A stretch of DNA of 64,000 nucleotides from an uncultured Candidatus Saccharibacteria bacterium (GTDB taxonomy: Bacteria; Patescibacteriota; Minisyncoccia; UBA6257; 2-01-FULL-56-20). The notes beneath the pieces are model-generated. The model was given only the letters and a program-made list of their open reading frames with translations, was not told the origin of the DNA and searched no databases. The position numbers and the translations under genes are program-made. Below are positions 15,189 to 57,573 of this stretch, in pieces (the stretch's first letter is position 1; each line of letters opens with the position of its first letter). The DNA is taken from the NCBI GenBank assembly GCA_964365185.1, contig CAYIOP010000003.1, positions 40,828-104,827 of the forward strand, read 5' to 3'.

Positions 15189-15289
15189 CTCTTTAAATGG
15201 AGACTCCCTGCCCCGTTAAATTACGAAGTAATTTTTTCGGGGTCTCCTCGCCCACAAACAAAATTAGCCCGACTAAAAATCGAGCTAAT

Positions 15290-15430
15290 TTTGTTTTATG
15301 ATGCTAAAGAATCGAACTGGAGTGGGGTCGGGAGAACATCTGGTCTCCCGTGTTGGAATGAGCGGAGTGGATTCAAAACCGAGGGTTTTGAACGAATCCC
15401 GCAATGCGAGGCGACGTGAGATTCCCGCCC
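15290..15430 (+). ncRNA. candidate structured small RNA ('element A') co-transcribed with tRNA-Leu; family unknown
   Basis: GC-rich and hairpin-dense in an AT-rich genome: a terminal helix GGGGTCGGG/CCCGCCCC, internal hairpins CGGGAGA..TCTCCCG and GGATTCAAAACC..GGTTTTGAACGAATCC, and a 3' block GACGTGAGATTC. It is homologous to the element at 57163-57268 and is followed by a hairpin/T-run at 15451-15486. Confidence 0.3.
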
Positions 15431-15450
15431 CGGCCAACCATATATATATT

Positions 15451-56911: not shown

Positions 56912-56969
56912 AAAATTTCAGAGGTGCTCTCTTGATTATTTAACTCGTGCCTCCTAAAATAACTGCATC

Positions 56970-57041
56970 GCCTGGGTAGCTCAGTGGAAGAGCTTTCGCC
57001 TGAAGAGCGAAGAGTCCGGTGTTCGATTCACCGCCCAGGCA
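56970..57041 (+). tRNA. tRNA-Phe (anticodon GAA)
   Basis: Acceptor GCCTGGG/CCCAGGC, D-arm GCTC-AGTGGAA-GAGC, anticodon arm TTCGC-CTGAAGA-GCGAA, T-arm CGGTG-TTCGATT-CACCG. Confidence 0.85.
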
Positions 57042-57051
57042 CATATTATTA

Positions 57052-57122
57052 CGGGCCGGAGTATGGGGGTAGTACGCCTGTTTTGGGAACAGGTAGACCG
57101 AGTTCGACTCTCGGCGGCCCGA
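57052..57122 (+). tRNA. tRNA-Pro (anticodon TGG)
   Basis: Acceptor CGGGCCG/CGGCCCG, anticodon arm CCTGT-TTTGGGA-ACAGG, T-arm CCGAG-TTCGACT-CTCGG, discriminator A. Confidence 0.65.
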
Positions 57123-57162
57123 CAACAATTTAACTTTTTATTCGCCGAGAGTCGGACTCGGA

Positions 57163-57268
57163 AAGGGGTCGGGGAAACGGAAGTTTCCCCGAGGCGAAGC
57201 TCACGAACCGCTGGGTTCGTGGGAGTCCCGCTTTGATGGGACGACGTGAGATTCTCGGCGGCCCGACA
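57163..57268 (+). ncRNA. candidate structured small RNA ('element B'), homologous to element A at 15290-15430 and embedded between tRNA-Pro and a duplicate of its 3' end
   Basis: GGGGTCGGGG + hairpin CGGGGAAAC-ggaa-GTTTCCCCG, a 10-bp hairpin CTCACGAACC/GGTTCGTGGGAG, GTCCC-gctttgat-GGGAC, then GACGTGAGATTC and CTCGGCGGCCCGACAA, which is identical to the last 16 nt of tRNA-Pro plus AA. A terminator follows at 57277-57307. Confidence 0.35.
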
Positions 57269-57276
57269 AAAATAAT

Positions 57277-57307
57277 AGCAGACGAAACTGGGAATTTCGT
57301 CTGCTTT
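57277..57307 (+). terminator. rho-independent terminator after the tRNA-Phe/tRNA-Pro/element B unit
   Basis: 11-bp stem AGCAGACGAAA / TTTCGTCTGCT with loop CTGGGAA, followed by TTGAAAT. Confidence 0.5.
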
Positions 57308-57490
57308 GAAATGAACACAAGATCTAACAAATTGGTTGTTAGGAGTTGTGTTCGCGCCCGGTCTTAAGGGCGCGGTAATTCAGTAAAAGGTGGGTAGAAA
57401 AAGTTCAAATACCCCGCTAATTTAATCATAAATCTAACCCAAAAATTGCCAAATCCAAGTTATCCACCTAATATATAAAAAAGTAAAAGC

Positions 57491-57562
57491 GGGCACTTAG
57501 CTCAGTGGTAGAGCGACTGTTTTACACACAGTAGGTCGGGGGTTCAATCCCTCCAGTGCCCA
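57491..57562 (+). tRNA. tRNA-Val (anticodon TAC)
   Basis: Acceptor GGGCACT/AGTGCCC, D-arm GCTC-AGTGGTA-GAGC, anticodon arm ACTGT-TTTACAC-ACAGT, T-arm GGGGG-TTCAATC-CCTCC. Confidence 0.8.
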
Positions 57563-57573
57563 CAATTCACCCC

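Follow-up and report, generated by a model that had tools for sequence, protein, structure and literature searches.

A Patescibacteria-wide family of folded RNA elements with arms copied from neighboring tRNA genes, possibly self-propagating

Element B, located downstream of tRNA-Pro(TGG) in the 64-kb window (i.e., the whole stretch of DNA analyzed here), is a member of a large, uncatalogued, Patescibacteria-wide (CPR) family of folded RNA elements of approximately 110-150 nt. With roughly an even chance of being correct, the family is a protein-less, non-autonomous, self-propagating RNA element that resides at the 3' side of tRNA genes. This reading is drawn from the combination of a conserved RNA fold, arms copied from the tRNA in both orientations, and a multi-copy, patchy, decaying, and tandem occurrence with no linked protein; mobility itself is what we infer from these patterns. 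A host-functional small RNA (sRNA) is the main rival.

The features of the element B locus, together with those of a second family member in the window (element A), are collected in Table 1. The exact 16-nt repeat of the tRNA-Pro 3' end reported in the earlier note (CTCGGCGGCCCGACAA) was recovered at exactly two positions, 57110 and 57254 (chance expectation 0.04), and in context it extends to 20 nt with one mismatch (GACTCTCGGCGGCCCGACAA at 57106-57125 vs. GATTCTCGGCGGCCCGACAA at 57250-57269). The right arm of B, X, spans T-loop position 57, the 3' strand of the T-stem, the 3' strand of the acceptor stem, and the discriminator followed by CAA. The left arm, X', had been described as a degenerate direct copy of the T-arm, but is in fact the reverse complement of the tRNA-Pro T-arm and two acceptor nucleotides (18/19 identical); CGCCGAGAGTCGGACTCGG resembles a direct copy because the T-stem is palindromic. 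X' can pair either with the right arm, forming helix P1, or with the T-arm/3' end of tRNA-Pro. Between the arms, the core motifs GGGGTCGGGG (57165) and GACGTGAGATTC (57243) recur in element A (15324-15424) and three hairpins are present, in agreement with the homology to element A that had been proposed. The insert of about 127 nt noted after tRNA-Pro is a structured element of that length; taken as 131 nt, the element folds at -68.3 kcal/mol (z = -5.1).

Table 1. Features of the element B locus and element A (positions are those of the window)
Feature	Position	Strand	Description
Element A	15301-15440	+	Second family member in window; orphan; covariance model 53 bits
Promoter-like site	56932-56960		5' of tRNA-Phe(GAA)
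tRNA-Phe(GAA)	56970-57042	+	ARAGORN and Rfam; first gene of transcription unit
tRNA-Pro(TGG)	57052-57123	+	ARAGORN and Rfam; host tRNA of element B
T-arm of tRNA-Pro(TGG)	57098-57102, 57103-57109, 57110-57114		T-stem CCGAG, T-loop TTCGACT, and CTCGG, respectively
Acceptor 3' strand of tRNA-Pro(TGG)	57115-57121		CGGCCCG
Discriminator of tRNA-Pro(TGG)	57122		A; CCA not encoded (CAA follows)
T-rich spacer, tRNA-Pro to element B	57126-57142	+	17 nt; no promoter-like or terminator-like site
Element B	57143-57269	+	127 nt; typical, well-preserved family member
Left arm X' of B	57143-57161	+	CGCCGAGAGTCGGACTCGG; reverse complement of tRNA-Pro positions about 49-67
Linker AAA and GGGGUC motif of B	57162-57170	+	GGGGUC invariant
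P3 hairpin of B	57170-57191	+	CGGGGAAAC-GGAA-GUUUCCCCG; GNRA loop; family covariation in 7/8 pairs
Junction J3/4 of B	57192-57199	+	AGGCGAAG in B; family consensus UGNNGGAA
P4 hairpin of B	57200-57223	+	CUCACGAACC-GCUG-GGUUCGUGGG; covariation in 5/6 modelled pairs
P5 variable hairpin of B	57225-57242	+	Covariation in 4/4 modelled basal pairs
Conserved 3' junction of B	57243-57249	+	GACGUGA; GAC can pair with GUC of GGGGUC (P2, invariant)
Right arm X of B	57250-57269	+	Direct tRNA-Pro copy, 19/20 identical
13-bp hairpin closing the unit	57277-57305	+	Terminator-like; weak U-tract on plus strand (TTT only)
tRNA-Val(TAC)	57491-57563		ARAGORN and Rfam

Judged from sequence signals, B is probably co-transcribed with tRNA-Phe and tRNA-Pro, as tRNA-Phe has a promoter-like site ahead of it, the interval from tRNA-Pro to B has none, and a hairpin follows the tail. 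This hairpin had been called a terminator (57277-57307); the hairpin exists, but the terminator scanner scores it on the minus strand only. Two open reading frames listed for the region (56940-57128 and 57130-57330) are present on the minus strand and overlap the tRNAs. An independent assembly, an ENA contig (L001) of Hainich groundwater origin, shows full identity over the entire B region. In the 180-nt gap between the terminal hairpin of B and the promoter-like site of tRNA-Val, a GC-rich hairpin (gttcgcgcccggtcttaagggcgcggtaa, window 57340-57380) was observed that matches no Rfam family. Throughout the window (1-64000), GC skew is negative in all 2-kb bins (-0.05 to -0.34) and long ORFs lie mostly on the minus strand; the entire 64-kb window appears to belong to one replichore, in which the tRNA-Phe/Pro/element B unit occupies the minority strand.

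Element A is an orphan within the family and shows partial degeneration: its tail (CCGCCCCGGCCAACCA), with CCGGCCA as acceptor 3' strand, corresponds to no tRNA in the window, and its 5' arm shows no pairing beyond GAAUC/GAUUC. Two hairpins (ggagactccctgcccc...ggggtctcc and aaaattagcccgactaaaaatcgagctaatttt) separate it from the preceding tRNA-Leu(CAA) (window 15190-15300), neither of which is scored as a terminator by a simple scanner.

The extent of the family was established by scanning one genome per GTDB species with the pattern GGGGTCGG-N60-90-GACGTGAGATTC, which yielded 58 loci. Of these, 41 derive from Patescibacteria metagenome-assembled genomes (MAGs), all with the full core, and cover Saccharibacteria, Paceibacterota/Parcubacteria, Moraniibacteriota, Lipton- and Colwellbacteria, and Minisyncoccia; the remaining 17, from high-GC sequences, do not share the full core and were set aside as chance matches. 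Application of nhmmer and a covariance model (R1) to the collected loci, which also retrieves copies without the exact pattern, raised the total to 54 copies in about 40 Patescibacteria MAGs, and within the window the covariance model found only A and B (107.5 bits for the latter). Viral contigs scanned with the family pattern gave 0 matches. Comparison with Rfam 15 (E up to 10 for A and B, E up to 1 for five other loci) returned no consistently matching family, the best match being LOOT (27 bits vs. a 46-bit threshold), which covers the tRNA and spacer; the Rfam check recommended in the earlier note placed only tRNAs above threshold in the window. No recurrent protein family, and no integrase, was detected within 3.5 kb on either side of 42 loci, and a literature search revealed no description of the tRNA-linked element. 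Two loci with typical elements and CPR-like tRNA contexts (L019 and L059) are labelled as Oligoflexia and Bdellovibrionales MAGs; these contigs are probably mis-binned Patescibacteria contigs.

The core of the element follows the order GGGGUC-P3-UGNNGGAA-P4-GAG-P5-CGACG, and individual folding gave the same fold in all cores. Covariation was assessed in a model-based alignment of 53 distinct copies against 500 shuffles and against controls in which pairing partners were slid by 1-3 columns. Paired cells amounted to 87.1% (vs. 73.8+-0.6% shuffled), double-sided changes to 270 (vs. 97+-10 shuffled), and the covariation score to 0.335 (vs. 0.143 shuffled and at most 0.113 with slid partners); none of the 500 shuffles reached the observed value on any of five measures. 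Compensatory changes are found in 8/14 pairs of P1 as well as in P3, P4, and P5 (Table 1), the ratio of G-U pairs to A-C mismatches in P3 is 16:1, and most loops of P3 and P4 are GNRA when read on the tRNA strand. Given this compensatory covariation and the GNRA loops, the core has been selected as a sense-strand RNA; compensatory changes and strand-specific G-U pairs are also the generic marks of a structured non-coding RNA. The GGGGUC/GAUUCC and GUC/GAC pairings never vary, and covariation is therefore uninformative on them. An alternative closing helix, in which the linker NGGAA would pair with UUCCN and extend into tRNA-specific sequence, was rejected, its covariation being at chance level (P = 0.26-0.90).

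Nearly all copies lie 0-250 nt downstream of a same-strand tRNA, which is complete in every copy, and the host tRNAs comprise more than 20 anticodon types (Lys, Pro, Gly, Arg, Glu, Leu, Ala, Ile, His, Thr, Tyr, Met, Ser, and Trp). The tail that follows the core is an exact 8-27-nt copy of the 3' end of the tRNA just upstream in 36 of the 44 pattern-defined copies; the att-like duplication first noticed at B is therefore real and constitutes a defining, recurrent property of the family. The 5' arm, in turn, corresponds to the local tRNA in reverse complement, starting at G53/T54 and reaching outward until 4-12 nt past C61, and it reproduces local T-loop variants (GACTCC, GAGTCC, GAATCC, TCCAATT, and TTCAATT). 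Right arms mostly start with the element-type GUGAGAUU and continue with tRNA sequence from C61. In copies found independently of the pattern (such as L027#2, L037#2, L050#3, and L063), however, the right arm begins with the true T-loop (GCGACG followed by TTCGATTCC, and similar), which indicates that both arms reproduce the tRNA starting near position 53, in inverted orientation on one side and in direct orientation on the other.

Pairing of the two arms gives rise to a long closing helix, P1, composed of tRNA T-stem/acceptor sequence. Its inner helix (GGAAUC-GA-AC/GU-GA-GAUUCC, with tandem G-A) is universal, and its outer extension of 0-8 bp is locus-specific and missing in more than half of the copies. 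The arm duplex has a mean energy of -17.3 kcal/mol with the element's own tail vs. -13.3 kcal/mol with the tails of other loci, and the own tail ranks within the top 5% of partners in 18/43 copies; the pair at columns 11/370 is broken in 20/49 copies.

The duplication always starts at about tRNA position 54-61, and its end varies between the discriminator and a point about 45 nt further on. The direct repeat of young copies (L003, L029, and L045) extends from tRNA position 61 across the terminator of the tRNA to 8-14 nt past the hairpin, i.e., to about the expected end of the primary transcript; most loci have a 5' arm that begins 0-15 nt downstream of such a T-run, and in four copies (L018, L019, L041, and L059#2), the element abuts the tRNA at N73 plus 0-3 nt. 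By these positions, the left side coincides with an RNA 3' terminus, either that of the mature tRNA or that of the terminator U-tract, and the right junction falls in the T-loop. The tRNA genes at family loci mostly lack an encoded CCA and have C-N-A (CAA, CAT, CAG, or CAC) after them, and a true CCA that is absent from the neighboring tRNA gene occurs in the element tail at L008, L010 (twice), L026, and L027 and in element A. Inspection by eye for an origin of the tails from mature, CCA-bearing tRNAs showed C-N-A after the discriminator in both tails and genes, with CCA in some tails and not genes and in some genes and not tails. At L045:2200-2520 (-) and L054:1880-1915 (-), a GC-rich hairpin of 20-31 nt splits the T-stem and acceptor parts of the tail, after which the tRNA-derived sequence resumes.

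Relatives of the window were identified by synteny (gyrA, a small ORF, a metallo-beta-lactamase-fold gene, and S1). In L063, whose S1 protein is 82% identical, an element follows the orthologous tRNA-Pro(TGG); four positions of the acceptor stem differ from those of the window, and the tail matches these changes exactly. L064, with an S1 protein identical to that of L063, still has the tRNA and spacer together with the initial 11 nt of the 5' arm, and its core and tail are gone. L065/L066 and L067/L068 (S1 72% identical) carry tRNA-Pro(TGG) with no element. The presence-absence comparison proposed in the earlier note has accordingly turned up relatives that are empty (L065 and L067) and one in which the insert has been deleted (L064 relative to L063); the further copies beside other tRNAs to which that note had also looked were found by the dozen, and mobility is not refuted. 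A metagenome scan for empty sites with the 3' half of tRNA-Pro retrieved only three contigs, from one unrelated high-GC organism, without the element. The element-free tRNA-Pro(TGG) of L067 (4740-4994) lies beside a small GIY-YIG-domain ORF and that of L065 (4059-5613) beside two HTH-domain ORFs with faint or weak transposase-like HTH_SB/HTH_23 matches; these neighbors may represent another mobile context at the same tRNA.

Copies also occur in tandem (L003, L045, L049, L050, and L051; at most two or three together), and decayed or rearranged copies were found at several loci. A second element, upstream of the other and after tRNA-Pro(CGG), at L003:4676-4766 (-), has its motifs reordered (CCCCC-GUGUUGGAAA-GAGCGAAGCGACGU-P4-GGGGGUC-...-GGUGAGAUUC) and ends with a tRNA 3'-end copy; either rearrangement of a copy or a separate subfamily may account for it. 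Besides element A, four loci (L004, L021, L048, and L051) are orphans with no tRNA in 8 kb, and no distant tail repeat was found in these 8-kb loci. Evidence bearing on spread comes from L045 and L049, in which cores that are 99% identical reside at two different tRNAs of one MAG, the similarity starting about 10 nt 5' of the arm and ending at GAGATTCC. Cores are also 95% identical between MAGs labelled Parcubacteria and Saccharibacteria, although an inference of horizontal transfer is weakened by the fact that MAG taxon labels may be unreliable.

If the family is indeed self-propagating, the element would be tolerated because the essential tRNA 3' end is duplicated and not interrupted, leaving the tRNA intact. 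A speculative route for such propagation is copy-choice (template switching) that starts from the universal T-loop sequence and may pass through RNA. In a three-step version, replication or reverse transcription would swap templates at the T-loop sequence, which stands inverted at both ends of the core, and this path would yield the direct-inverted-core-direct layout as well as the observed junctions; the location of the left boundary at RNA 3' ends and of the right boundary in the T-loop favors a route of this kind. Several considerations weaken the self-propagating reading nonetheless. No precise pair of filled and empty sites was found among the relatives (the L064 case is an imprecise deletion), no mobilizing enzyme has been identified, and we know of no free form of the element, whether circle or cDNA. 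The 5' arm fits no standard transposition or integration chemistry. Moreover, conservation of the fold across the superphylum is also expected of a host-beneficial RNA, the tracking of four acceptor-stem substitutions by the tails of the window and L063 requires either continuing gene conversion or functional constraint, and the orphans L048 and L051, whose acceptor 3' strand reads CCGGAGC, have kept almost identical tails with no tRNA nearby.

The same observations lend some weight to the main rival, a host-functional sRNA linked to its cognate tRNA, which is possible although on balance rather unlikely. Here, the antisense 5' arm (T-loop, T-stem, and acceptor 3' strand) and the mimic tail could modulate how the cognate (pre-)tRNA folds, is processed, or comes under surveillance; alternatively, the tail could serve as a tRNA-like end on an RNA that is handled by tRNA enzymes. 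The CPR-wide conservation of the fold, the strong covariation, the conserved orphan tails, the tail that follows tRNA substitutions between orthologous copies, and the sequence-based case for co-transcription of B with tRNA-Phe and tRNA-Pro are all consistent with such a role, as is the agreement of the 5' arm with the T-loop variant of its tRNA and not with the usual GUGAGAUU, which makes the tRNA a better pairing partner for this arm than the element's own tail. Conversely, the element is dispensable and patchy in close relatives, having been deleted in L064 and decayed or rearranged at several loci, and only some of the tRNAs carry it, following no isoacceptor logic. The tandem duplicates and the frequent lack of the outer P1 extension also argue against a host function.

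More intricate activities on the tRNA itself have been considered as well. It is unlikely that the family is an RNA machine operating on its cognate tRNA, in which the 5' arm would unzip the T-arm and acceptor 3' strand and the tail would replace the 3' strand, so that the element would be a T-loop intron or a 3'-end replacement/repair device with guide and exon re-templated for each target, spreading via an RNA intermediate that joins RNA 3' ends. Quite unlikely, likewise, is a T-loop intron-like or tRNA-3'-end-swap RNA, whose 5' arm would be an internal guide aligning the tRNA body with the tail as replacement 3' exon, and in which the core or a host enzyme would join the two, either splicing out the tRNA 3' end together with the element or restoring tRNAs that had been cleaved in the T-loop. 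Trans-splicing group I ribozyme designs consist of a guide complementary to the target, a core, and a replacement 3' segment, and the element shares this order. The unconstrained minimum free energy fold of tRNA-Pro plus B, moreover, pairs the 5' acceptor strand of the tRNA with the tail of B and the tRNA's own T-arm/3' end with X' as a 20-bp hairpin. Such a swapped fold was at least as stable as the native one at 23/23 loci (23 of the 25 loci first tested; median -7.3 kcal/mol), in an energy model that ignores tRNA tertiary and co-transcriptional folding. It was still favored when X' was shuffled (median -3.1 kcal/mol), however, and much of the effect is thus a property of the energy model. 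X' itself contributes about -4 kcal/mol (median) and more than -8 kcal/mol in eight loci, B among them (-12.7 vs. -1.6 kcal/mol shuffled); the swapped fold is accordingly a modeled lead and not a demonstration. A core of about 90 nt that matches no Rfam ribozyme or intron family, and an upstream tRNA that is always complete, such that splicing is never required, further detract from the intron-like or end-swap reading. Least probable is that the layout is the attL/attR scar of integrase islands in the tRNA T-loop, with cargo lost and the core as the attP arm region. T-loop-class tyrosine integrases leave direct repeats of the tRNA 3' end that start in the T-loop and sometimes run past the gene, as seen here, and this part of the attL/attR layout noted earlier stands; the inverted, target-derived 5' arm, by contrast, has no counterpart in attP/attR and is left unexplained by the classical model. 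The suggestion of an excised-island remnant fares no better, given that the tRNA-element distance is 0-250 nt in almost all copies and no integrase or other conserved protein lies nearby. Nearly all 54 copies have an insert of 100-250 nt, neither an integrase nor a recurrent gene occurs within 3.5 kb, the 8-kb loci of the orphans hold no distant tail repeat, and stem covariation with G-U pairs and GNRA loops is a signature of RNA and not of protein-binding DNA.

Whichever reading holds, Patescibacteria possess tiny genomes, yet dozens of copies of a protein-less, strongly structured, tRNA-linked RNA have been kept. If selfish, the family would represent a new use of an essential gene by a mobile element, wherein the target 3' end is copied in both orientations with no integrase or transposase seen, and would point to a bacterial route of gene duplication, RNA-mediated or by template switching, that has gone unrecognized. 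If functional, it would constitute a new class of tRNA-specific RNA with effectively programmable arms. In either case, the covariance model can be used in the annotation of CPR genomes, where the element now yields spurious ORFs, the element can serve as a marker for strain-level genome dynamics, and it is a candidate in which to test for a new ribozyme or an activity guided by RNA.

Comparison with known systems brings both likenesses and differences to light. Like tRNA-integrating islands, the family displays a direct repeat starting in the T-loop, an intact tRNA, and a repeat that may pass the gene end, and the direct tRNA 3'-end repeat flanking the insert is present in B (19/20) and in 36/44 members; no integrase, integrase remnant, or cargo was found at 42 loci, where inserts are 100-250 nt. 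Unlike in such islands, the insert consists of covarying RNA structure of about 130 nt, the target is additionally present as an inverted copy, and one core occurs at more than 20 different tRNAs with the arms re-made each time. Small repeats such as REP/BIME, ERIC, Correia/NEMIS, RUP, Rickettsia palindromic elements, and MITEs are similarly short, multi-copy, protein-less, intergenic, strain-patchy, and co-transcribed, and form stem-loops. The family differs from these in its three-hairpin junction core conserved across a superphylum and in having neither fixed terminal inverted repeats nor a target duplication of fixed length: the duplication varies from 8 to about 65 nt, and the inner arms are a T-loop-like sequence and its complement, the 5' arm following the local T-loop, as opposed to the identical terminal inverted repeats of MITEs and IS elements.

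Group I introns in the tRNA genes of Patescibacteria sit in the anticodon loop (PMC13011429). The family shares with group I introns and trans-splicing ribozymes an association with tRNA genes in the same phylum and a guide-like 5' segment complementary across the exon junction; it departs from group I introns in leaving the tRNA uninterrupted, in lying in or after the T-loop region, and in having too small a core, and no Intron_gpI match was obtained in Rfam. Neither did any Rfam ribozyme model match the element. Dual-strand guide RNAs are exemplified by the IS110 bridge RNA and the TIGR-Tas tigRNA (PMC12045711), in which, as here, one RNA bears a segment complementary and a segment identical to one target strand; the two segments of the present element, however, cover the same target positions and pair mutually, and no IS110, Nop-domain, or DEDD recombinase gene was seen among recurrent neighbors, nor were an array or box C/D-like motifs found. 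tmRNA (including permuted forms), bacterial Y RNA, and viral tRNA-like structures resemble the element in carrying a genuine tRNA 3' strand with discriminator and sometimes CCA, whereas the element lacks an acceptor 5' strand, a D-arm, and a folded T-loop, and its tail is specific to the neighboring tRNA; ARAGORN identified no tmRNA, and tmRNA_permuted scored 10.4 bits vs. a 47-bit threshold. Nor does the sequence fit classical attP/attB logic, integron attC-like boxes, a retroviral-type primer-binding site, a K-turn or box C/D, a hammerhead or hairpin ribozyme core, or a T-box. Since the defining trait of each system compared is wanting (an integrase; a fixed inverted repeat and target duplication; an intron core; a Nop/DEDD protein or array), the tRNA-linked family is best described as a new kind of element.
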